Assembly (NCBI GenBank): GCA_043745805.1
Contig: JAYTSD010000004.1
Location: 192,001 to 256,000 of the forward strand
From: Fibrobacteria bacterium
GTDB taxonomy: Bacteria; Fibrobacterota; Fibrobacteria; UBA11236
DNA length: 64,000 bases
Direction: 5' to 3'
Shown piece by piece: positions 584 through 36,859 of the stretch (position 1 is the first letter of the stretch; every line of letters starts with the position of its first letter). Made by a program: the position numbers and the translations under genes. The notes under the pieces are model-generated. The model was not told where the DNA came from, did no database searches, and was given only the letters and a program-made list of their open reading frames with translations.

Positions 584-1993
584 CTATTCGTTTATCGATT
601 CTTCGGGTTGTGTGGTGACCATTTTAAGCTTGTCTTTGAGAAATTCATAGACTCTTTCTAGATGCATGCCATGCGAACCCTTTACGAGTAAAGTATCACC
701 GGGTTGTAAATTTTTAATTAATTCAGCGCAAAGCAAATTAAAATCTAAAAAATGATGAGCGCGTTCGCGTTTCATGCCTTTTTCACGAGCGCCCTGATTA
801 ATGAAGCGACTTAGAGTACCAAAAGTAAACAGTTCCGTTACGCCCATTTCTACTAGGTAACGTCCAATTTCCAAATGCATTGCAGGGCCTTCATCGCCTA
901 ATTCTAACATATCGCCCAAAACGGCCAAACAACGACCACGCCCTTGCATACTACCCAAAGTAGACAAGGCTGTTTTCGTAGAAGTAGGGTTAGCATTATA
1001 ACTATCATCAATAACCGTGAGGCCATTAAGTTTTTTAATCTGTAAACGATTAGGGCTGGCAGTAAAAGATCGTAATCCTTTAACCATAGCTTTTTTAGAG
1101 AGGCGCAAATAAGTGCCTACGGCAATTGCCGCCAAAGCATTATATACATTATGCTCACCAGGAACTTGTAACTTAAACTCCGTACGTCCAATGCGAAAAG
1201 AGGCGCAACCTTCAGCATCATAAGTCAATTCATCAGGTCGAATTTGTCCGCGATGTAAACCATATGTCAATAATTTTGTTTTTGCATTACTTCGCGCTTT
1301 GGCTAAATAAGGATCATCTACATTAATTATTAACGTGCCCTTGGTTTTAAAACCACTGGCAATGGATAACTTTTCTTCGGCAATTTTTTCTTGCGATCCC
1401 ATATGTTCCAAATGAGCGGTGCCCACATTGGTGATAACAGCTAAAGTAGGAGAAACTACGTCACTTAATGTTCGAATTTCACCCGGATGACTCATGCCAA
1501 TTTCAATCACAGCAAAATCATGATGAGATTTTAATTCAAATAGCGTTAGAGGTACGCCAACATGATTATTAAAATTTCCTTGCGTCCCTAAAACATTACC
1601 TGCCTGGGAAAGCATTTTAACAATCATATCTTTGGTAGTCGTTTTTCCATTACTCCCAGTAACACCAATTTTTGGAATACGAAACTTCGCAGCATACCTT
1701 TTGGCCAATGCCAACAAGGCCGTATTAGGATCATCTACGGGAATATAAACATTAATGGATTGCCCATTTTCTCGATGCCAATTTTTGCTTACCACAGCAG
1801 CACTCCCTCCTAATTTAAAAACTTCATTTGCAAATACATGTCCGTCGAAATTATCTCCTGACAAAGCCCAAAATATTTGCCCTTTTTTAAGCTTGCGTGA
1901 ATCGGTGCAAAGTTGAATTTGCTTACGCGCCCGCCATGGACCGACCAAATCTGCATCCAATAATTTCGCCAATTCTTCCAAACCAATTTCCAT
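584..1993 (-). CDS. murF: UDP-N-acetylmuramoyl-tripeptide--D-alanyl-D-alanine ligase
   Basis: TDSR, GVTGSNGKTTTK, GNFNNHVGVP, DDSYNANP, LGDMLELG, VKGS motifs; start moved to ATG 1993, just after the murE stop. Confidence 0.95.
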   Translation of the reverse strand: MEIGLEELAKLLDADLVGPWRARKQIQLCTDSRKLKKGQIFWALSGDNFDGHVFANEVFKLGGSAAVVSKNWHRENGQSINVYIPVDDPNTALLALAKRYAAKFRIPKIGVTGSNGKTTTKDMIVKMLSQAGNVLGTQGNFNNHVGVPLTLFELKSHHDFAVIEIGMSHPGEIRTLSDVVSPTLAVITNVGTAHLEHMGSQEKIAEEKLSIASGFKTKGTLIINVDDPYLAKARSNAKTKLLTYGLHRGQIRPDELTYDAEGCASFRIGRTEFKLQVPGEHNVYNALAAIAVGTYLRLSKKAMVKGLRSFTASPNRLQIKKLNGLTVIDDSYNANPTSTKTALSTLGSMQGRGRCLAVLGDMLELGDEGPAMHLEIGRYLVEMGVTELFTFGTLSRFINQGAREKGMKRERAHHFLDFNLLCAELIKNLQPGDTLLVKGSHGMHLERVYEFLKDKLKMVTTQPEESINE

Positions 1994-1994
1994 T

Positions 1995-3467
1995 TCAATT
2001 CTTTCCAACTTGCATGAAATCCAAAACTTCACGCTGATCACTGAAAGGTTTTTTTTCTCGTCCTATAACTTGATATTCTTCATGCCCTTTTCCTGCAATC
2101 ACTAAACAATCACCACGCTGCAAACCTTGCAAGGCCAAGCGTATTGCTGCCCGTCTATCAGATTCCACGGTAACATCGTCTTTATGTATCATGCCGGATA
2201 AAATTTCTTGTAAAATAGACTCGGCATTTTCTGTACGCGGATTATCGCTGGTTAAAAAAACTTTATCGGCACACTTCTCTGCTAAAGCACCCATTTGTGG
2301 ACGTTTAGTTTTATCTCTATCGCCACCACATCCAAATAAACAAAAAATGCGTCCCGGAGTTAAAGGACGTAAGCTCAATAAAACTCTTTCCAGTGCGTCC
2401 GGCGTATGCGCATAATCCACAATAGCATAAGCGCCCATGGGCAAAGCAAATACTTCATTACGTCCATGCACCGTAACATTGGCGATACTACGCGCGAGCT
2501 CCTCCGCAGGAATGTCCAAAGAAAAACCTAAAGCAATGGTTGCCAATAGATTTTCGAGATTTAATTCTCCCACCAGTTTAGAAGTAAAGGAATAGCTTTT
2601 ACCTTGAAAATTTAAGGTTAATTGCGTGCCCGATAATTGCATTTCGGAATGCTCTAAATAAATGTCAGGAGTTAAACCTTGTTGCGCGGATTTTTGTCGA
2701 GAAAATCCAAGACGCGGGTTTTTGATTTCTAAAGCGAGTCGACGACCATAGGAGGAGTCTAAATTAAGAATGGCTATTCCATCGTCAAGCAAATATTCGC
2801 TAAACAATTTTTTCTTGGCTTGATAATAATCTTCAAAACCTTTGTGATAATCAAAATGGTCTTGCGTTAAATTGGTAAAAATAGCTCTTTGAAAATGAAA
2901 GCTTCGCAAGCGATCTTGATCTAAAGCATGCGAGGAAACCTCCATCACTAAAGCATTGCAGCCTTGATCTACACCGCGGCGCAATAAAGGAAAAAAAGCT
3001 TCTGGCGCAGGAGTAGTCCAAGGTGCATTTAATATTTCATTTCCGATTTGATATTGAATCGTTCCTAAAGCCATTACTTTTTTGCCTAGGCCTTCTAAAA
3101 CCGAAGCGCATAAACGCGTAATCGTGGATTTCCCATTAGTTCCCGTCACGGCAATACTCAATAGCCCCTGCCCAGGATTTTCAAACCAACTATTAAAAAG
3201 TGGAGCCACCCAATTTCTTAAACCTTCAATTTTTTTCCATGCTATATTCGGATTAATGTCGATTAATACTTCTTCCGATAAAACCGCAATGGCTCCTTGC
3301 ATAATGGCTTCGTCAGCAAATTCACTTCCGCTTTTTACAGAACCATTAAGTGCCAGAAATAATTCGCCCTTTTTAACCAAACGAGAATCTACCGAAACAC
3401 CCGTAACTTCAAAATCCCATCCCATATCGGATAAGCCAGCCTGTTGAAATAATTTGGCAATATGCAT
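1995..3467 (-). CDS. murE: UDP-N-acetylmuramoylalanyl-D-glutamate--2,6-diaminopimelate ligase
   Basis: VTGTNGKST, MEVSSHAL, DYAHTPD, GCGGDRD, DNPR (mDAP-specific), GKGHE; TAATG overlap with the ftsI stop. Confidence 0.95.
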   Translation of the reverse strand: MHIAKLFQQAGLSDMGWDFEVTGVSVDSRLVKKGELFLALNGSVKSGSEFADEAIMQGAIAVLSEEVLIDINPNIAWKKIEGLRNWVAPLFNSWFENPGQGLLSIAVTGTNGKSTITRLCASVLEGLGKKVMALGTIQYQIGNEILNAPWTTPAPEAFFPLLRRGVDQGCNALVMEVSSHALDQDRLRSFHFQRAIFTNLTQDHFDYHKGFEDYYQAKKKLFSEYLLDDGIAILNLDSSYGRRLALEIKNPRLGFSRQKSAQQGLTPDIYLEHSEMQLSGTQLTLNFQGKSYSFTSKLVGELNLENLLATIALGFSLDIPAEELARSIANVTVHGRNEVFALPMGAYAIVDYAHTPDALERVLLSLRPLTPGRIFCLFGCGGDRDKTKRPQMGALAEKCADKVFLTSDNPRTENAESILQEILSGMIHKDDVTVESDRRAAIRLALQGLQRGDCLVIAGKGHEEYQVIGREKKPFSDQREVLDFMQVGKN

Positions 3468-5377
3468 TAGCCCATCCAACCCAAAGTAAGGATGCATTTA
3501 TGTCCTGGCACAACGGGCGATCCAATGGCAGGCTCTTGTTTTATCACTTTACCGCTACCTTGATATTCTACATCCACATTCAAATACTTGAGTTTAAGCA
3601 AGGCTTCGCGCAGTGTAAGATTATTTAAATCCGGCATACTTTTGGAATTGAAATAGCCCATGCTTAAAACTAAGGTATCACGCAAAAGTATTTTTCTTTC
3701 AGGAGGTAAGTTTTGCGCCAATACCACATCCCCTTTACCTTCAATTCGAAAAGTAAAACCTTTTTGTGATAACCGATTGGCTGCATCCGAGCTGGAGTAA
3801 CCAATTAGATTCGGTACCCGCGCCGAATCACCAGTCTTATCCAATTCATTGGTCGAAGCCGTTTTTGAATTGGCAAATTGCGCCAAAGCATAATTAGGCT
3901 CGGCTAATAAACGATCGACAATTTCGCGAAAAACTGGAGCTGCACTTTGTCCACCATATTTTAATAATGAAGGTTCATCAAATAAAACCAAACACACATA
4001 TTGCGGTTTATCAACCGGAACCATTCCTACAAAAGAGGAATTGAATTTTCCATGCACATAATGATGCGTTATAGGATCAATTTTTTCTGCCGTACCCGTT
4101 TTTCCAGCCATGGAAATGCGGTCCGATTTAATATCCATCGCAGTTCCATACTCCACCACGGATCCCATCATAGAGCGTAATTGAGCAGCAGTTTGTTCGG
4201 AAATTACTCGGCGAACTCGTTTCACCGGAACCTCTGCACGAATGTTACCTCCTTCATCGGCCCATGCTTTTATAATACGCGGCTTCATCAAAGTTCCACC
4301 GTTTGCGACAGCGGCACATGCCATAGCCACTTGCAATGGGGTAACAGCAATTTCATGACCAAAAGCCATAGTACTTTGGGTACGACCACTCCAACTTTGT
4401 ATGCTTTTTAAATAACCACTTTCCTCTGCGGGCAAGCCAATAGCCGTTTTCATTCCGAACCCGAAAGAACGTATATAGCGGTAAAATGTTTCGGGAGAAA
4501 TGCGCGTAACGGCTTTAGCAAAACAAATATTACTAGAATAGGCTAATGCATCCCGGAAACTAATGCGGCCATGTGCATGTGTATCACTAATAAGTTCACC
4601 CATAAGTTTATAAGTACCATTTTCACCATCTATGGTATCTTCAGGACGAATTCTTTTTTCTTCTATTAAAGCAGCCGCGGTAATTATTTTAAATGTGCTA
4701 CCCGGTTCATAAGTCTTGGCTACGGCTTGATTTTTCCATGCGTCTTCATTTACATTCTCGCGTGTATTAGGGTTATAAAAAGGATAATTCGCAAGCGCAA
4801 GAATATCCCCATTAAAAGGATCTACTATTAATGCTAATCCTTGCTTTGCTCCCGAACGAAGCACACCACGCTCTAAAGCTCTTTCTGCAATAGACTGCAT
4901 ATTTGCATCCAACGTTAATACGGCATCATAACCATCTACAGCTTCTTTTTGCTTATCTTGAAAGCCGGGTGAAGGCCGATTACGAGCATCGTAACGCAAA
5001 TATTTCCAACCGTCAGTGCCGCGTAATTCTCTATCTAAAAAATATTCTAAGCCTAATTGACCGTAACCATCGCGACCTACCTGACCTAGCACTTGTCCCG
5101 CTAAAGGACCATTAGGACAAACTCTATGCAAAGCCGTTTCACCTTTTCCATTTTCAGGGGTAACAGGAAACTCTGCATTTACAATTAATTTTTTTAAATT
5201 CCGATCAAGAATTTCTCCGCGCCGAGGAGCCAACACATTACGTCGAATGGATTGACGATAAGCTATGCCTTGATAAAAATCGGATTTCCAAACTTGTACA
5301 TAAAATGTGCGCGCAGTCATTCCTATCCACGTAAGGATGAGGAGAAAACCAAGAGTTATAATCCTTTGGTTGGCCAT
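3467..5377 (-). CDS. ftsI: Class B penicillin-binding protein (FtsI/PBP3) with two C-terminal PASTA domains
   Basis: N-terminal TM, RGEILDRN, EPGSTFK (SxxK), SSN, KTGT; VPNLIG/MPDL PASTA repeats; dcw context. Confidence 0.93.
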   Translation of the reverse strand: MANQRIITLGFLLILTWIGMTARTFYVQVWKSDFYQGIAYRQSIRRNVLAPRRGEILDRNLKKLIVNAEFPVTPENGKGETALHRVCPNGPLAGQVLGQVGRDGYGQLGLEYFLDRELRGTDGWKYLRYDARNRPSPGFQDKQKEAVDGYDAVLTLDANMQSIAERALERGVLRSGAKQGLALIVDPFNGDILALANYPFYNPNTRENVNEDAWKNQAVAKTYEPGSTFKIITAAALIEEKRIRPEDTIDGENGTYKLMGELISDTHAHGRISFRDALAYSSNICFAKAVTRISPETFYRYIRSFGFGMKTAIGLPAEESGYLKSIQSWSGRTQSTMAFGHEIAVTPLQVAMACAAVANGGTLMKPRIIKAWADEGGNIRAEVPVKRVRRVISEQTAAQLRSMMGSVVEYGTAMDIKSDRISMAGKTGTAEKIDPITHHYVHGKFNSSFVGMVPVDKPQYVCLVLFDEPSLLKYGGQSAAPVFREIVDRLLAEPNYALAQFANSKTASTNELDKTGDSARVPNLIGYSSSDAANRLSQKGFTFRIEGKGDVVLAQNLPPERKILLRDTLVLSMGYFNSKSMPDLNNLTLREALLKLKYLNVDVEYQGSGKVIKQEPAIGSPVVPGHKCILTLGWMG

Positions 5378-30119: not shown

Positions 30120-30172
30120 TATAATCTTCTTTTCTATTCTTCTATTCTCATTGTCTTTTATTGGAGGTCACT

Positions 30173-30922
30173 GTGAACACCCTTACCCCACGTGTGAAAA
30201 CAGGTTGTGAAGGACTCGATCAAATTTTACATGGCGGCCTTTTAGAAGGCAATGCCACCTTGATTGAAGGTTCTGCCGGCACCGGCAAAACCACTTTAGC
30301 TACGCAATTTATTATGCAAGGCGTGAAAGAAAATGAACATGGTGTACTTTTCGCTTTCGAAGAATATCCTGAACAATATTATGATTGCGCTGCTGAATTA
30401 GGTTGGGATTTGCGTGGCTTAGAAAAAGCCGGAAAAATCAGTGTGATTTTTACTACTCCCGAAAGTTTTTTGGAAGAGATCGAAGAAGACGATGGTCGTC
30501 TCACGAAATTGTTTGAAGAGAAAAAAACCAAGCGTGTGGTGATCGATAGCATTACCCATTTTGAAAAACTCTCACCTGAAATTGGTCAATTGCGCAGTAT
30601 TGAAACCGATATTGTCAATGCCATGAAGCGCGAAGGTATTACGGCATTGGTTTTAAAAGAGAATGCCAATGTGCTCGGTAAATGGGATGTTTCGATGAAC
30701 AAAATTCCATTTATTGTGGACACTTATATTTTGTTACGCTATTTGGAAATGGATTCACAAATTAAGCGCTGCCTTATGGTTTTAAAAATGCGCGGTAGCG
30801 ATCATGATAAAGATATTCGCGAATATGTGATTGAAAAGGGTGGCTTAAAAGTGGGAGAGAAATTCTCAGGCGTTTCGGGAATTTTCCTCGGCACCGGCAT
30901 TCATGCCCGAGCTGCAAAATAA
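30173..30922 (+). CDS. Single-domain KaiC/RAD55/GvpD-like RecA-superfamily ATPase
   Basis: VKTGCEGLDQILHGGL, Walker A GSAGTGKTT, FEE, RVVIDS, LKMRGS; GGAGG RBS then GTG at 30173. Confidence 0.88.
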   Translation: MNTLTPRVKTGCEGLDQILHGGLLEGNATLIEGSAGTGKTTLATQFIMQGVKENEHGVLFAFEEYPEQYYDCAAELGWDLRGLEKAGKISVIFTTPESFLEEIEEDDGRLTKLFEEKKTKRVVIDSITHFEKLSPEIGQLRSIETDIVNAMKREGITALVLKENANVLGKWDVSMNKIPFIVDTYILLRYLEMDSQIKRCLMVLKMRGSDHDKDIREYVIEKGGLKVGEKFSGVSGIFLGTGIHARAAK

Positions 30923-30934
30923 TACGCATGAACT

Positions 30935-31618
30935 TCATTTTGGTATGACCAGAGCGGTTTGCATTTGCAAAAGCTCTTGGTATAAAGCCTGAAATTCCGC
31001 CACCCAAAAAGGATCTTGCCCTTTTAAGGTATTGAAAAAATCTTTCAAATTCCAGCGATCATTATAAGGGCCTACGACTTGCTCAGGCAAATGCGTTTTA
31101 TTTGTTCCCATTTTGGCTTGCTTTGTTTTGCTCACTGCGCGTAAGGCCACCATACGATGACGTAACAGGCGCGTATACAAGCGCGAACGAAAATCCGTCA
31201 AGTCAGTATTATGCGTTCTATCTATGTTGCGATTCGTCGTTTTGCTTTCCGAAAGCTTATCTTCGAAGCGTTGCATCCATTGCAAACCTTGGGCTTTTTC
31301 TAAATTCGAAATGCCACGACCACTATTTTGTAAAGTTTTTTTAACGCGCCGAATTTTTTCTTTATTCCAATCCTGTAAGGGTTGAGAAAGCGTGCGCGTC
31401 TTTTTGATTTTAGGTGAAGTGGATTTTTGTCCCTGCGCTAAAAGTTTTTCTGCTTTATTTAAAAAATAGACTCCGGCTTTATTCTGTAATTTGGATTCCG
31501 CTTGTTTTAATAGTAAGCCCACATAACGCGCTTTAGGGCGCGATAAGCCCGTGCTTGGCAACTGCTGACGTAAAGCCTGCAATTGCTCCATTAAAACTGG
31601 GTTTAAAGTTTCGGACAT
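30935..31618 (-). CDS. Hypothetical protein, DUF2894 (ZorG)-like C-terminus
   Basis: C-terminal PEQVVGPYNDRWNL...DPFWVAEFQALYQELLQM resembles the DUF2894 'P.NAGPLNS...SP.YL.RF..Y...L' signature (recognised from memory). Confidence 0.55.
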   Translation of the reverse strand: MSETLNPVLMEQLQALRQQLPSTGLSRPKARYVGLLLKQAESKLQNKAGVYFLNKAEKLLAQGQKSTSPKIKKTRTLSQPLQDWNKEKIRRVKKTLQNSGRGISNLEKAQGLQWMQRFEDKLSESKTTNRNIDRTHNTDLTDFRSRLYTRLLRHRMVALRAVSKTKQAKMGTNKTHLPEQVVGPYNDRWNLKDFFNTLKGQDPFWVAEFQALYQELLQMQTALVIPK

Positions 31619-31628
31619 AAATTAAAGC

Positions 31629-33068
31629 TTAATTTTCCGTCGTTAAACTTTGATCGCGTGCTTCGGACAAGGCCGCCAAAGCTTCCATTAAAATTTCTTG
31701 CGTTTTATAAGTATTTTCTAAAAGTAATTCCGAGGACTTTTCTTGGAAGGCCATGAGAGAATCATTCAATTGACCCACGAAATCTTTTTCCGCATCCGTG
31801 CTTTCCACTTTGGCATCGAGTTTTTCTAATAGTGTCATCAAGCCTTCATTGAGCAAGCTCACGCCCGCTTGCATTTCCCCTTGATTAATCTGTAACAAAC
31901 TCGTTACCTCAGCAAAAATACCTGAGGTATTCTGTAAGTTACCAGCTAAGCCATCAACCTTTTGCGCCAATTCCAAACCTAATTGCGCTTGGCCTTGCAT
32001 AAGCTCTTGCGTTTCGCTCATGGTTAAGCGATAGCGTTCCAATAAACTCTCGAGCAATTCCCCATTGGGACGAATGGCATTTTCTTCCAAGGTTTGCAAT
32101 AATTCCAAAGTTTTTTCCGCACCCTTTTGCACCGTCTCTTGCATGGAAAGCGTAGCCTGTTGTAAAGCTTCAGCTTTCGTCGCAAAGCTATCAGACGCTT
32201 GCTGGGCTTGCTTTTCCCAAGTTTGCAGCGACTGCGCTAAAATGGAAGCTAACTGATAGTTTTGATTTTCTCTCTCCGCTTTGGCCAACTCAGATTGTTC
32301 ACTTAAAGTTTCTTGATACTGCGTATTTAATACACTCAAAACTTGTTGTAAGTCCACTTGCCATTTTTCTCTCAAGCCTGCAAAATTTGCATTTTGTGTT
32401 TGCGCATTTTCCAGTAAAGCCTGATGAGCATTGCGAGTTACGGTTGCTTCTTCATACCAATTTTCTAATTGCGTTTTGAATTGCTCCACTTGTTGCGCTT
32501 GTACTTTTTGCCAGCCGTCTTTCCATTGACTTAAAAGTTCCTGTGCCGATTGTGTGGCACGTTGATCCGCCGCCTGAATTTGAGCCTTTGCTTGCGCTTG
32601 CGCTGCTTCAATTTCGGCTTTCGATGATTTACTTAAAGCGTCTTCTCTTTTAACATCTTCTGCCAAAGTTTTCTCGGCTAACTGCGTTTGCTTCTCAGCT
32701 AATTGTGATTGCAATTGCCCTAATTTTTCCACCGCCGCAACCGTTTGCAAAGTTTGTTTATTTTGCTCCGCTAAACTTTTTTGAAAACCATCTTGAAATC
32801 CTTTTTGTATAGACTCGGAAACTTTATCCGAGGATTCATCCAAGGCTTTAGCCATTGCTACTAAATGCGAAACGAGGTCCGGCTTGTTTTGTTGTTTATC
32901 GCGGCGAATTTGCAAAGCGAGTATTTGGCTATAGGCCCAGAAGCCCAGTCCCACCACGCTTAACCCAGCAAGGGCAAAATTTTTAGTGGTGGCACCAATA
33001 GCGATAATGGCTATGCTACTAATGGCCATAGCCATCCAAATTTTCTTTTCTTGATTTTGTTCTAGCAT
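31629..33068 (-). CDS. Membrane-anchored long coiled-coil protein, DUF802 (ZorA type III)-like
   Basis: AAGGAG RBS before ATG 33068; two N-terminal TMs, about 400 aa of Q/E/A-rich helix; C-terminus LNDSLMAFQEKSSELLLENTYKTQEIL patterned like the DUF802-protein tail. Confidence 0.5.
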   Translation of the reverse strand: MLEQNQEKKIWMAMAISSIAIIAIGATTKNFALAGLSVVGLGFWAYSQILALQIRRDKQQNKPDLVSHLVAMAKALDESSDKVSESIQKGFQDGFQKSLAEQNKQTLQTVAAVEKLGQLQSQLAEKQTQLAEKTLAEDVKREDALSKSSKAEIEAAQAQAKAQIQAADQRATQSAQELLSQWKDGWQKVQAQQVEQFKTQLENWYEEATVTRNAHQALLENAQTQNANFAGLREKWQVDLQQVLSVLNTQYQETLSEQSELAKAERENQNYQLASILAQSLQTWEKQAQQASDSFATKAEALQQATLSMQETVQKGAEKTLELLQTLEENAIRPNGELLESLLERYRLTMSETQELMQGQAQLGLELAQKVDGLAGNLQNTSGIFAEVTSLLQINQGEMQAGVSLLNEGLMTLLEKLDAKVESTDAEKDFVGQLNDSLMAFQEKSSELLLENTYKTQEILMEALAALSEARDQSLTTEN

Positions 33069-33970
33069 GGAACACTTAACTCCTTGTGAAATTCTTTCAC
33101 CGCTACTCCTTTGAGTAACAGTTCCCATTTTTTTTGAAAATGCATAATCATATGCTCCGTATATGATTCGGCAAAGCCGGAAAATTGTTGCATAAATCCT
33201 TCGAAGCCGCTTTCATAGCGATATGGATTATGCCAAGGCGCAGCGATTTGCGCAAATAAAGTTTGTTCATTGGGATAAAATTTCTTGTCCCATTTATTGA
33301 CTTTGTTCACAAAAGTTTCGAGTGCCATTTCATTTAATGACAATCGAATTTTTTTGAAAATTTCAAATTCTTTTTGGCGAATGCCACTTTCCAAAACCAT
33401 GAGCAAGCGCTGATAAGGATGTTTGCTCAGTTGATCTTGTTGCGAAAAATTTTGGGCAAACTGTTGTTGCAAACGAAAAATAATTCCGGAAATGGCCGAA
33501 ACTGTGCGTTCACAATCCGAAGACATATCATGCAAGCTTTGTATATACAGCGTTTTCGCTTCCTTACGCGAGCCTTTGCCCACTAAGGCATGGCCTTCGA
33601 TTGTTTCCGTAAACCATTGATTACGTGCTAAATAAGGATGCAGTTGCGCATAGCTTAAACGTTTTTTCCACTTGTCACGAAACTCCACAAAGCGTTCATT
33701 ACATTCGGTTTTTAAGGCCGAGAATTTTTCTATGGCTTCATTATAGGTTTCTGTATAAACTTCAGAATCAGAATGGGATGAGGCTGTCAGCAAGGCTTTG
33801 GGATTGCGTTGTATGGCATCCATGCCTTCGCGCAAAATAATCGATGGCATGGAATCCAACATTCCCGAAATGAAATTCATGGTGGAATTTTCATTTGGCT
33901 TTTGCAATATGTTCTGAAATTGGCTTTGGGCGCCGAATCGATTGAGACGTGTTTTTAAATCCGATATCAT
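33062..33970 (-). CDS. Hypothetical helical protein, possibly DUF3348 (ZorF)-like
   Basis: Intact 302-aa ORF whose end overlaps the next start; helical pattern RLLMVLESGIRQKEFEIF similar to DUF3348 proteins; first gene of the operon. Confidence 0.4.
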   Translation of the reverse strand: MISDLKTRLNRFGAQSQFQNILQKPNENSTMNFISGMLDSMPSIILREGMDAIQRNPKALLTASSHSDSEVYTETYNEAIEKFSALKTECNERFVEFRDKWKKRLSYAQLHPYLARNQWFTETIEGHALVGKGSRKEAKTLYIQSLHDMSSDCERTVSAISGIIFRLQQQFAQNFSQQDQLSKHPYQRLLMVLESGIRQKEFEIFKKIRLSLNEMALETFVNKVNKWDKKFYPNEQTLFAQIAAPWHNPYRYESGFEGFMQQFSGFAESYTEHMIMHFQKKWELLLKGVAVKEFHKELSVPC

Positions 33971-34156: not shown

Positions 34157-36859
34157 TCACTTATTTAGTAATTTTTCAAGGTACCGGTATTCAAAGGTGT
34201 TTTCTGGGAAGTTTTTCAGATTCTGTGATAAATATGTTATAGCATGGCGCGATTTTCCCGCTTGATCCAATTTTAAATATTCCACTAAAACATCTTCTAA
34301 TGTAGCTAAGGTATTTTCTGCACTCCTTGGTGTGATAATGGCTTCACCATTTTTCCCATTGAGATAAGTCATTTTTAAAAACTCATTACGTGAAGAGGCG
34401 TCCCCAGAAGATAATTTTTTTGTTTCAATATTTATTCCAAAATCTGCAATTTTTGCTAAGGCTTGATTATGTATAATCGCCTGATAATGAGTGCCGTTAA
34501 TATCTGCAAAGCGATTGAATAATTGATCGTATTTATTAGCTGCTAGGCGATAATCATCGGATAAAAAAGCTAAATCGCCTTGTAATAAACATAAAGCGCT
34601 CGCATTAACCGGCGATAAATTTTCTATGCCCAGCTCTTGCACTACTTGGCTGGCCTTTTTAAAATCCTGCGAACCTAAAAAATAGCGGGCTTGCAAAAAC
34701 CTTAATGCGGTATGAACATCTGCATTGTCCTTGTAATAGCTCAATAAATTTAAAGACTGTTGCAAAGGTGGAGTAAACCCTAAGCGCCGAAAAATTTCTA
34801 AAAGTTGCGCATAATAGTTTCCAAAAATAGGTCGTAAAGCATCTTCATACTCAATGAGAAAATGAAATTCTTCTGCCATTTTATTTGCACATGCTTCCGC
34901 ACTTCCGCCATCATTTAAACACTGATAAATCGATTCTACTCGATTATCCACTAAAGCGGCATTAAATTCTGATTCAGGATAGGCTAGCGGTAACAATTTT
35001 AATTTGTCAAAAGCCAAATTATTTTTTCCTAAACCGAAATAACATTGCCCTAATTGAAATAAAGCATCGGGAATTAATCGTGGATCTTTGGAGTGACTAA
35101 GGGCATTGGTAAGGTGATTAATCGCTTGGGAATAATTTTTTTGCAACATATAACATTTGCCCAATTTTAAATAAGCGACTTGCTTTACGCTTTTTTTAGG
35201 GTAGGCTTCAATGACATGTCGATAGGCTTGAATGCTATTTTGAATGAAGCCTAATTCCAAGTAGGCATCGGCCACCACCGTAGGGCTAGCCGCAAGCGCT
35301 ACGGCCTTTTTATAAATGCGAATATCATCAAGTGCTACATTTGAATTCCAAGTGAAAAATCCAAAACGACTATTGCGCTCCACCTTTACTGGCAGAGTAC
35401 AAAAACGATGAGCTACTTGTTTATCGTCGATTAATAGCCTTAAATCATTATCCTCTTTTTCCACCGTCACTTTATATACTTTGCCACTGCGTAAGGGCAC
35501 TGGCACTGCATTAAAAGCATACTTGCCTACTTTTCCCATTTCAATTTTAGCGTCCTGACTTCCATACCCACCCAATGAAAAGCGAATACCTTCTTCGGGA
35601 GAAGAGCCAAAAAGAAAAATATTTAAATCATTGTTTGCGCCATTTAATCCTTTAATCGAAAACTCGATTTTCACATCACCGAATACTTCCTGATTTGCCA
35701 AAGCATAACTTTCGCCTGTTGAAAGCCCTTCCAATCGTTCATGTACAATTTGCCAATTATGCGAAGGGATCCAAATATTATTTTGTCGCTCAAAGGAAGT
35801 AAATAATATAGAAGTATCTTTACTATTGAAGTTTTCTTCTTGCACCCAGCCCCATGGAGCCTGTTTATTTTCTTCTTGCAAATTAAGGAAAAAGAAAACC
35901 AAAGCCGATATGAGTAGTAAAATTCCACCGCCCACGTATAAAATTGGGTTTGCTTTTACAAAACGCCATGTCAGATTCAAAATACTAGGTGGCTTCGCTT
36001 TAATAGGAAGCCCATGTTTATAGGCGGAAATATCTTCTAATAATAAATCCAAACTTTGATACCTATCGACCGCTTCTTTATAGATGCATTTACCGGCAAT
36101 GGCCGCAAAGTCCGCATCGAGCCAAGGGCATAAAGAACGTAAGGATACAGGTTCCGCACGAATGGCATTGAGGGCGGTTTGATGTAAAGAACGAGGATCC
36201 AAATAAGGGTTTTTAAAAGACACGAGTTCATAAATAATAATGCCTAAAGAACAAATATCTGAAAGTACTCCTACGCCCTGTCCCATTGCTTGCTCTGGGG
36301 ACATATAAGCGGGAGAACCAACTACTTCACCGGATAATGTGAGAGTAACTGCCAAGTTAGGATCCACGGATTTAGCTAAACCAAAATCAATAATGATCGG
36401 TTTATTTTTTTGCATTAAAATGTTTGTAGGCTTAAGGTCTCGATGGATAATTCCTTGCTGATGACAATACGCTAAGCCTTGTCCTATTTGTTGTACTATA
36501 TCTAATACTTCAGGAAAGCTGGGTTTCTTTTCATGTAAAAAAGTCAGTAAATCATTACCCTCAATATATTCCATCACCAAGTAATAAATACCGTTTTGCT
36601 CACCGACTTCATAAATTTTAATCACATTGTCGTGACTCATTTTAGCAACGGCACGCGCCTCGGCTTGAAAGCGTTCAATAAAACGCTGATGTAAAGCCAC
36701 ACCAAACAATACTTTGATAGCCACAATGCGATCCAAATCGGTTTGATGCGCTTTGAAAACCACGGCCATTCCACCGCGGCCCAGTTCCGAAAGAATTATA
36801 TATTTACCGAGCCTGCCGCCTACTTGGAGGTTAAGCAATGCATCAGTAGCCATGCTCAT
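34157..36859 (-). CDS. Hanks-type Ser/Thr protein kinase with TM, beta-sandwich and TPR region
   Basis: LGRGGMAVVF, VAIK, HRDLKPTN, DFG, GSPAYMSPE; TM ILYVGGGILLLISALVFFFL; TPR-like AYLKLGKCY and ALFQLGQCY. Confidence 0.9.
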   Translation of the reverse strand: MSMATDALLNLQVGGRLGKYIILSELGRGGMAVVFKAHQTDLDRIVAIKVLFGVALHQRFIERFQAEARAVAKMSHDNVIKIYEVGEQNGIYYLVMEYIEGNDLLTFLHEKKPSFPEVLDIVQQIGQGLAYCHQQGIIHRDLKPTNILMQKNKPIIIDFGLAKSVDPNLAVTLTLSGEVVGSPAYMSPEQAMGQGVGVLSDICSLGIIIYELVSFKNPYLDPRSLHQTALNAIRAEPVSLRSLCPWLDADFAAIAGKCIYKEAVDRYQSLDLLLEDISAYKHGLPIKAKPPSILNLTWRFVKANPILYVGGGILLLISALVFFFLNLQEENKQAPWGWVQEENFNSKDTSILFTSFERQNNIWIPSHNWQIVHERLEGLSTGESYALANQEVFGDVKIEFSIKGLNGANNDLNIFLFGSSPEEGIRFSLGGYGSQDAKIEMGKVGKYAFNAVPVPLRSGKVYKVTVEKEDNDLRLLIDDKQVAHRFCTLPVKVERNSRFGFFTWNSNVALDDIRIYKKAVALAASPTVVADAYLELGFIQNSIQAYRHVIEAYPKKSVKQVAYLKLGKCYMLQKNYSQAINHLTNALSHSKDPRLIPDALFQLGQCYFGLGKNNLAFDKLKLLPLAYPESEFNAALVDNRVESIYQCLNDGGSAEACANKMAEEFHFLIEYEDALRPIFGNYYAQLLEIFRRLGFTPPLQQSLNLLSYYKDNADVHTALRFLQARYFLGSQDFKKASQVVQELGIENLSPVNASALCLLQGDLAFLSDDYRLAANKYDQLFNRFADINGTHYQAIIHNQALAKIADFGINIETKKLSSGDASSRNEFLKMTYLNGKNGEAIITPRSAENTLATLEDVLVEYLKLDQAGKSRHAITYLSQNLKNFPENTFEYRYLEKLLNK

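Follow-up and report, generated by a model that had tools for sequence, protein, structure and literature searches.

Zorya type III systems comprise four genes, encoding ZorF (DUF3348), ZorA (DUF802), ZorB (OmpA/MotB), and ZorG (DUF2894) (Payne et al., 2021, PMC8565338). The locus described here, on the minus strand between positions 30935 and 33970 of a 64,000-nt stretch of a Fibrobacteria genome (the whole stretch that was analyzed, hereafter the window), has three genes in the same order without zorB, and is what remains of a Zorya III-like operon after the loss of its motor. The three open reading frames (ORFs) are referred to as A, B, and C, and the zorB-like fourth gene found in four-gene relatives as X; the genome containing the window (G000) is 99.2% complete, and f1 to f8 are families of the same class, g3 and g4 being genera of f1 and g24 a genus of f5. 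To our knowledge, neither ZorF nor ZorG has a known activity.

In Zorya type I, ZorA5B2 is a rotary motor driven by the proton motive force (PMF), with a 70-nm tail (Hu et al., 2024, PMC11946911). In that account, the ZorB D26N mutation and all tail truncations abolish defense, and the tail, including its tip, is needed for recruiting soluble effectors. Zorya type III, when cloned in E. coli, is reported to reduce plaquing; the system tested in that account was from Stenotrophomonas only (Payne et al., 2021, PMC8565338). A full-text search of the literature, supplements aside, found neither a motor-less Zorya nor a Zorya in Fibrobacter; the match for these two names together was a survey of Tn7 cargo.

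The window operon is like Zorya type III in its gene order, minus zorB, in the long hendecad-type tail that B keeps, and in a motif of C that aligns with DUF2894; its orthologues in relatives, moreover, carry ZorB3-like genes and ZorA3-like genes with four transmembrane (TM) helices. It differs in having neither zorB nor the channel helices, in that neither A nor C is matched by a ZorF or ZorG model, and in the size of B (479 aa, vs. 720–885 aa), with a shorter tail. The window family is also core and vertically inherited in one class, not sporadic, and is not known to act in defense. With Zorya type I it shares a membrane-anchored, long, non-heptad coiled-coil tail, and recruitment by the type I tip serves here as a working analogy for docking of A and C on the tip of B; type I, however, has a motor and the partners ZorC and ZorD (DNA binder, nuclease), while the window has neither a motor nor a nuclease-like fold. 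The 5:2 stators of the MotAB, ExbBD, and TolQR families are related by descent to the lost part of B and to the lost zorB-like gene, and canonical members are encoded elsewhere in G000, but B has none of the defining helices or motifs of the family and is not a member of it. In the four-gene operons of other Fibrobacteria, A, the B tip, and C have direct orthologues, and one such operon, in G026 (f3), also has the downstream neighbors found in the window. These operons differ in that TM3, TM4, and the zorB-like gene are kept and, at most loci of f5 and f6, two envelope genes lie upstream.

The features of the window operon are as follows.

33062-33970, minus strand: gene A, 302 aa, helical-bundle protein in the ZorF position (ORF list and AlphaFold2)
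33062-33068, minus strand: A/B overlap, ATGCTAG, the A stop overlapping the B start by 7 nt
31629-33068, minus strand: gene B, 479 aa, truncated ZorA-like protein with a membrane anchor, coiled-coil tail, and conserved tip, without the TM3/TM4 channel helices
32913-33041, minus strand: B residues 10-52, N-terminal hydrophobic hairpin, corresponding to TM1-TM2 of four-TM orthologues (hydropathy and orthologue comparison)
31974-32912, minus strand: B residues 53-365, coiled-coil tail with hendecad-type hydrophobic periodicity of ~3.64 residues
31632-31973, minus strand: B residues 366-479, conserved tail-tip domain, ..LLQINQGEMQAG..LLEKL..F.EK..ELLLEN..KTQEIL.. (alignment and identity to G026)
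31619-31628, minus strand: B-C intergenic gap, 10 nt, a site occupied by the zorB-like gene in four-gene relatives (L066 3363-4001; L023 9435-10073)
30935-31618, minus strand: gene C, 227 aa, basic all-helical protein in the ZorG position
30992-31072, minus strand: C residues 183-209, G-P-Y-N-x15-D-P-x-W-V-x-x-F motif, with the invariant residues of the C family

Gene B: Anchor, Tail, and Tip

An earlier note on this DNA, made from the sequence alone, had described three coupled minus-strand ORFs of 302, 479, and 227 aa, the second passing from an N-terminal TM hairpin into a coiled coil without MotA/ExbB-type channel helices, and had remarked that there was no room for zorB. All of this stands: the 7-nt overlap and 10-nt gap can be read directly, the gap lies where relatives have their zorB-like gene, and hydropathy, motif, and PF01618 scans agree with the description of B. 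One segment of its hairpin exceeds a Kyte-Doolittle threshold of 1.6, and the second is weaker; a motif scan of B found no G-x-[LMIV]-G-T-[FL]-x-G channel motif, and there was no Pfam match to PF01618 (MotA_ExbB) at E ≤ 1. A longer reading of B, with 499 aa, is also open, starting at the first ATG (33128); the second ATG (33068) gives the 479-aa version used here.

Beyond the hairpin, B has a long cytoplasmic tail of ZorA type, with ~310 aa of coiled coil followed by the tip. For residues 71-479 (tail and tip together), the best hydrophobic period is 3.64 residues, with a power of 1.59 (vs. a 95th percentile of 1.26 for shuffled sequences) and ~0 power at 3.50. A period of 3.58–3.68, with none at 3.50, is common to the motor-less B proteins, the four-gene B proteins, and true DUF802 tails, and this hendecad-type pattern fits the non-heptad, right-handed ZorA coil as described for type I (PMC11946911). 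The last ~100 residues are conserved in all 30 aligned orthologues, motor-less and motor-bearing, and in G026 the tip of the full ZorA-like protein is 44% identical to the window tip over 100 aa (E 3e-20). Judged by synteny and by this tip identity, B is orthologous to full-length ZorA-like genes. Comparison of the tip with DUF802 C-termini was uninformative (hhalign P 0.013).

Four-Gene Relatives and Loss of the Motor

In the 33 loci that could be typed, A is always followed by orthologues of B and C; 18 have three genes (f1, f2, f4, and g24) and 15 have four (f3, f5, f6, and f7). Atypical loci are those of two f8 genomes, in which the operon is split over contigs with B, X, and C present, and L017, which ends before C. 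The four-gene form is found throughout the largest family of the class, with examples in G026 (L066:550-4668) and G035 (L023:6865-10729); A proteins of four-gene operons are 24–46% identical to that of the window.

In the four-gene operons, B has four TM helices, with LLGLMGTFFGL...GIFGTSLCGL, and the next gene is X, of 212–229 aa. X has an OmpA domain (Pfam E 3e-15 to 4e-17) and matches the PADLOC ZorB3 model over its full length (E 4.7e-41 and 1.8e-44 for f5 examples, 1.7e-50 for G026), far better than it does ZorB1 or ZorB2. A tblastn search matched it to OmpA genes in 206 betaproteobacterial chromid and plasmid records, with 35–41% identity over 89–96% of X. The six reference loci that were opened (L060-L065) all read DUF3348, DUF802, OmpA, DUF2894, four of them as annotated and two by their ORFs. 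The membrane domains of 13 four-gene B proteins and five DUF802 proteins match across 217 columns that run from TM1 past TM4 (hhalign 97.3%, E 2.1e-11). Given these motor subunits, the gene order, and the gene sizes, the four-gene operon is classed here as Zorya type III-like.

Gene order and phylogeny together show which form came first. The f1 loci read rluD, Ser/Thr kinase, A, B, C, and then, convergently, a KaiC-like gene, holA, and greA. G026, whose family (f3) belongs to the same taxonomic order as the window, has A at 550-1446, B at 1498-3366 (622 aa, with LLGLFGTILG and TM3/4), X at 3363-4001, and C ending at 4668; downstream of C come the same neighbors as in the window, a convergent KaiC-like gene, holA, and greA. 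In a tree of A, the deepest split, with 100/99 support, separates f1, f2, f3, and f4 from f5 to f8. Since four-gene forms are found on both sides of it, the four-gene state is ancestral to the class. These comparisons show the window operon to be a motor-less derivative formed in situ, with the zorB-like gene and the linker, TM3, and TM4 of B deleted.

This happened more than once. Well-supported branches of the A tree force at least two changes, and three are most parsimonious; an approximately unbiased (AU) test did not reject a topology in which the motor-less rows of f1, f2, and f4 all fall together (p 0.564). There were thus at least two losses, one in the f1/f2/f4 group (or groups) and one in g24, or three if the taxonomy, which places f3 in one order with f1 and f2 and leaves f4 outside that order, reflects the species tree.

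The distribution of the motor genes agrees with this typing. With ZorB3 scored as present at E ≤ 1e-25, it is found in none of the genomes of f1 (0/28), f2 (0/5), f4 (0/10), or g24 (0/8), nor in controls (0/14), and in 102/113 f5, 1/1 f3, 2/2 f6, 1/1 f7, and 2/2 f8 genomes. (Genome tallies for ZorB3, A, and C20-type MotA include one unpublished genome, G021; no G021 sequence was used.) The earlier note had allowed for a complete zorAB elsewhere in the genome, and for the three-gene form being a recent, private deletion. In G000, however, no full-length ZorB3-like gene was found, the best match (63 bits, model positions 85-207) covering the OmpA domain only, and a model search of the genome gave no ZorA3 match. 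The three-gene form is likewise not a recent deletion private to the window, as ZorB3 is not found at the above threshold, and A is kept, in f1, f2, and f4.

A second, independent motor-less form is present in genus g24 of f5 (L056:8519-9061, L057:7183-7812). Its B protein has 180–209 aa, made up of one TM helix, a Pro-rich spacer with PKIE/PPAKE-type repeats, and the tip. A and C are both kept, shortened to 245–251 aa and 174–179 aa, respectively.

The 1.6-Mb genome G025 (f2) has a further variant (L058:7208-8467), an A-like gene of 419 aa with a 130-aa extension that ends YN-x15-DKIW. The extension contains the C motif with exact spacing (10 bits; E 2.7e-5 as a single sequence, 0.053 among 1,991 ORFs), and no B or C gene follows it. 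It is possible that this gene is an A–C fusion that arose after loss of B, which would hint that A and C work together.

What is new in these loci is that a Zorya III-like operon found throughout a class has given rise, repeatedly by the tree, to a motor-less derivative that is conserved. Deletions have occurred here naturally and in steps, from the four-gene operon to three-gene operons in which the tail is long or almost gone, and possibly to an A–C fusion. The comparison points to a self-sufficient module made up of the tip and the ZorF-like and ZorG-like proteins, and provides a tractable route to what ZorF and ZorG do.

Distribution and Possible Role

Homologues of A fell into 35 clusters, named solely as hypothetical proteins of Fibrobacteres, Fibrobacteria, or Fibrobacterota metagenome-assembled genomes (MAGs), and A was found in 39 of 41 relatives. 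The A profile matched 161 of 251 genomes of the phylum: 161 of the 163 in the class, and none of the 88 in other classes. By family, G000 not counted, the matches were 27/28 in f1, 5/5 in f2, 1/1 in f3, 10/10 in f4, 112/113 in f5, 2/2 in f6, 1/1 in f7, and 2/2 in f8. The A family is small, mostly single-copy, and, within the phylum genomes searched, confined to one class; in the A tree, f2, f4, and subgroups of f1 and f5 form clades. Near-universality of this kind across a class is unusual for a defense system, and the A locus has neither the patchy distribution nor the mobile or defense-island context of accessory defense systems.

Since the motor-less form has neither channel helices nor an Asp-bearing plug helix nor a peptidoglycan-binding domain, ion flow, torque, and wall anchoring can be excluded: B would not conduct ions, would not turn, and would not be anchored to the wall. 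It would be a static, membrane-tethered, and probably oligomeric coiled-coil stalk, whose tip would keep A, C, or both on the inner side of the membrane. Together with A and C, the tip might in that case be a separable "output" module of the ancestral machine, retained by selection, the activity of this sub-complex being one that never needed, or no longer needs, rotation. The static stalk with its tip-docked module has, in our estimation, slightly less than an even chance of being right as drawn; that motor-less A, B, and C work without rotation is probable, since they are kept intact across whole families.

As to what such a module does, a cellular role that is fixed and has to do with the envelope or membrane is narrowly favored over a mobile accessory anti-phage system, because the family occurs in nearly every genome of the class, mostly as a single copy passed on vertically, with housekeeping synteny in the window and the f1 loci, and downstream also in f2 and f3. 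The best overall explanation, which we regard as reasonably likely, is that the window operon is a motor-less derivative, its static stalk module having a fixed cellular role.

Two published observations pull the other way. According to the type I work, both rotation and the tail are required (PMC11946911), so that a motor-less form is predicted to be dead; on that model, either the function has changed or the inference is wrong. And the lowered plaquing reported for type III in E. coli (PMC8565338) leaves room for a role in defense.

One alternative, then, is that the operon is still anti-phage: A, B, and C would sense or block phage at the membrane, either constitutively or in response to some trigger other than PMF-driven rotation. 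The ancestral operon is homologous to the type III system that lowered plaquing efficiency (PMC8565338), effector recruitment in type I is described as dependent on the tail tip (PMC11946911), and the partners A, B, and C are conserved together. We nevertheless consider this rather unlikely, given a family that is near-universal, mostly single-copy, and vertically inherited across its class, the position of the window and f1 loci among housekeeping genes, the lack of a nuclease or other effector fold in the models of A and C, and the reported loss of defense in type I motor mutants (PMC11946911).

A fixed cellular role could be taken one step further. It is a tentative suggestion, more doubtful than not, that this is a domesticated Zorya, in which a defense-type rotary machine has become a fixed, vertically inherited core component of a whole class, its output module autonomous without ion flow, rotation, or wall anchoring, as the deletion of the motor at least twice, and of nearly all of the tail in one genus, would illustrate. 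If so, ZorF- and ZorG-type proteins would have a membrane activity of their own, and Zorya type III might be primarily cellular and secondarily defense. The occurrence of a defense-type system as a core, class-wide, syntenic set bears on the domestication of defense systems in general, and such core behavior bears on whether PADLOC-type Zorya III calls always mean immunity.

Relationship of A and C to ZorF and ZorG

The protein C has a pI of 10.4 and a net charge of +22, and ends PEQVVGPYN...DPFWVAEF; its AlphaFold2 model is all-helical (pLDDT 84.5, pTM 0.55). Three residues (G183, Y185, and N186) are invariant among 31 sequences of its family and four more, including D202 and W205, are nearly so; five of these seven are in the C-terminal motif. 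Compared with six DUF2894 proteins by hhalign, C gave P 0.0015–0.003, vs. 0.047–0.53 for cross-family controls, and its GPYN..DPxWVxxF is placed opposite GPLNS..SPxYLxxF, both lying at the same point near the C-terminus; relaxing the threshold yields a collinear alignment of 183 columns. The families compared are both basic (median pI 9.3 and 9.95), and A and DUF3348 are likewise similar to each other in basicity. A, modeled as an all-helical long bundle with one small hairpin (AlphaFold2, pLDDT 88.4, pTM 0.85), gave P 0.023–0.028 with six DUF3348 proteins, again collinear, vs. 0.11–0.39 for controls. From these comparisons, with synteny carrying much of the weight, C is quite probably a ZorG homologue; for A, homology to ZorF, argued mainly from gene position, is the somewhat better guess.

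Other results weaken the case for both. Neither A nor C has a Pfam, NCBIfam, or PADLOC ZorF/ZorG match, nor do their f5 and f3 orthologues, and no match to DUF3348 or DUF2894 was found for 32 A and 31 C family members with Pfam at E ≤ 10. The hhalign probabilities were themselves low, at 2–17%. Foldseek found no match in the PDB to either model at E ≤ 0.001 (best E 0.24 and 0.83), and VIA-align Z scores reached at most 9.3, below the helical background of ~13, A resembling dynamin/Mx-type stalks and C resembling generic three-helix bundles. For B, the PADLOC match was to a ZorA3 model (PDLC00650, E 1.2e-4, 18.7 bits) in the tail region only, and of low specificity: a sister ZorA3 model, PDLC00647, matches 4 of 14 control genomes (Caulobacter, Synechococcus, Thermus, and Sulfolobus), so that tail-only matches are weak evidence alone, and this one was set aside as a family assignment.

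The earlier note had matched the operon to ZorF-ZorA-ZorG by both sequence pattern and gene order. The order reads alike apart from the missing zorB; the pattern seen between A and DUF3348 has not, no hidden Markov model (HMM) bearing it out; and the likeness of C to DUF2894 is weak, although the motif quoted for it does align. With the Pfam and PADLOC models, A and C matched none of DUF3348, DUF2894, and Zorya III, and B gave the ZorA3 tail match. The core of the note, that a Zorya type III-like operon has lost zorB and the ZorA channel helices and is maintained, is supported.

Searches for more distant relatives gave little. Among 1.84 billion representatives, the A profile found 70 clusters, and Pfam scans of seven of these, including the weakest longer hits, gave no DUF3348; for C, a word-index search returned the query itself only (1 protein among 390 candidates). 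By Foldseek and VIA-align, the models of A and C have no recognizable enzymatic or nuclease fold. Look-alikes proposed by the Atlas, Sey1_3HB/GBP_C for A (0.93, low recognition 1443) and Ntox15 (0.81) or NucA/NucB (0.76) for C, were not borne out by the predicted folds.

It may be asked, then, whether A and C are homologues of ZorF and ZorG at all, or whether the window is the motor-less form of a separate Zorya-type system, in which a ZorA3/ZorB3-like motor has two unrelated helical partners. The absence of an HMM link in any search, the low hhalign probabilities, and Atlas look-alikes that are other helical families speak for such partners. Against this, the proteobacterial operons have the same gene order and genes of similar size; for A as for C, hhalign does better with the cognate family than in the cross-family controls, with alignments collinear over their full length; and the GPYN..DPxW motif of C falls on GPLNS..SPxYL at the same C-terminal position, in families that are both basic. 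On balance, unrelated partners seem improbable, and homology, firmer for C than for A, is the reading kept here.

Other Stators in the Genome

G000 has 10 genes of the MotA_ExbB family. Contig C20 (L034:451-2151, minus strand) carries a canonical, tail-less MotA (253 aa) and a MotB (306 aa), next to a PiT-like transporter gene. MotA of this C20 type is found in 15/24 f1 genomes (1/10 in g4), 3/6 in f2, 1/1 in f3, 0/5 in f4, and 0/4 in f5, and does not track the motor-less state; the G026 homologue is distant, at 33% identity.

These genes raise the possibility of a motor in trans, the tail of B being driven by the stand-alone C20 pair or another MotAB, ExbBD, or TolQR-type stator, with rotation kept. 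This is very improbable: B is without the TM3/TM4 helices that, in the type I account, wrap the B-subunit in 5:2 motors (PMC11946911), C20 MotA is in just one of ten g4 and none of five f4 genomes, all motor-less, while a distant homologue occurs in motor-bearing G026, and the g24 form has almost no tail to drive. A static B remains the preferred reading.

Maintenance of the Motor-Less Genes

Each of the 18 three-gene loci typed has intact ORFs with translational coupling. Ratios of nonsynonymous to synonymous substitution (dN/dS) for A/B/C in three motor-less species pairs, which indicate purifying selection, were 0.14/0.21/0.25 in g3, 0.13/0.13/0.10 in f4, and 0.13/-/0.17 in g24, the B genes of the g24 pair giving no dS; with dS at 0.85–1.6, near saturation, these are approximate. 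For a four-gene pair they were 0.04–0.12. The earlier note's view that the genes are maintained rather than decaying thus finds agreement in the intact ORFs, in dN/dS, and in conservation across f1, f2, and f4. That A, B, and C are real genes and not chance ORFs follows from the profile distribution, the orthologues of B and C in the 33 typed loci, and dN/dS of 0.10–0.25.

That the operon is a decaying remnant, on its way to pseudogenization after the deletion, is hardly credible: the operon has lost two of its four ancestral components wholly or in part, and dN/dS is somewhat higher than in the four-gene pair (0.10–0.25 vs. 0.04–0.12), but these values are well below 1, the coupled ORFs are intact in 18/18 loci, A is kept in 27/28 f1, 5/5 f2, and 10/10 f4 genomes, and the tip and the C motif are strongly conserved.

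Gene Neighborhoods

Neighbors of the operon in the window include genes for ArgJ, GreA, a DNA polymerase III delta-type protein (holA), a KaiC-like ATPase, a Ser/Thr kinase, an RluD-type synthase, and an FAD protein. The GC content of the operon is unremarkable (0.41, within a window range of 0.37–0.45), and a promoter and terminator scan was at chance level (8 vs. 6.9 expected, and 5 vs. 5.0).

The KaiC-like gene (30161-30922, plus strand), which encodes a RecA-type ATPase, is convergent with C, their stop codons 12 bp apart. Relatives in f1, f2, and f3 have it in the same place, at 55–78% identity, so that it marks the locus stably and may do more than that.

On the other side, 186 bp upstream of A and on the same strand, is a gene for a 900-aa Ser/Thr kinase with TPR repeats (34157-36859, minus strand). 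It is 48–59% identical in seven of the eight f1 loci fetched (L019 being the exception). The kinase was considered as a conserved partner and dropped, since the gene upstream of A in G026 (f3) is non-homologous.

Directly upstream of A in the four-gene locus of G035 are genes for a DUF6263-like lipoprotein (Pfam E 5e-7) and a NosD/right-handed beta-helix protein (E 1e-8 to 1e-4) (L023:5306-6855). Homologues of this lipoprotein and beta-helix pair also occur in L022, L024, L040, L043-L048, L052, L053, and L055, and so in most f5 and f6 four-gene loci; both are absent from the f7 locus L041, and the beta-helix gene is also missing in L045. The f1 genera g3 and g4 have a distant homologue of the DUF6263-like gene only, and the window locus has neither envelope gene. 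The DUF6263-like gene was not found in G000 with a single query, an empty answer that carries no weight. The position of these genes hints at a link between the ancestral form of the operon and the envelope.

The reference Zorya III operons (L060-L065) lie among metabolic and transport genes, not in obvious defense islands. Ralstonia accounts for 135 of the 206 chromid and plasmid records matching X; this abundance, together with the ordinary neighbors of the reference operons, suggests that Zorya III may be a core locus there too.

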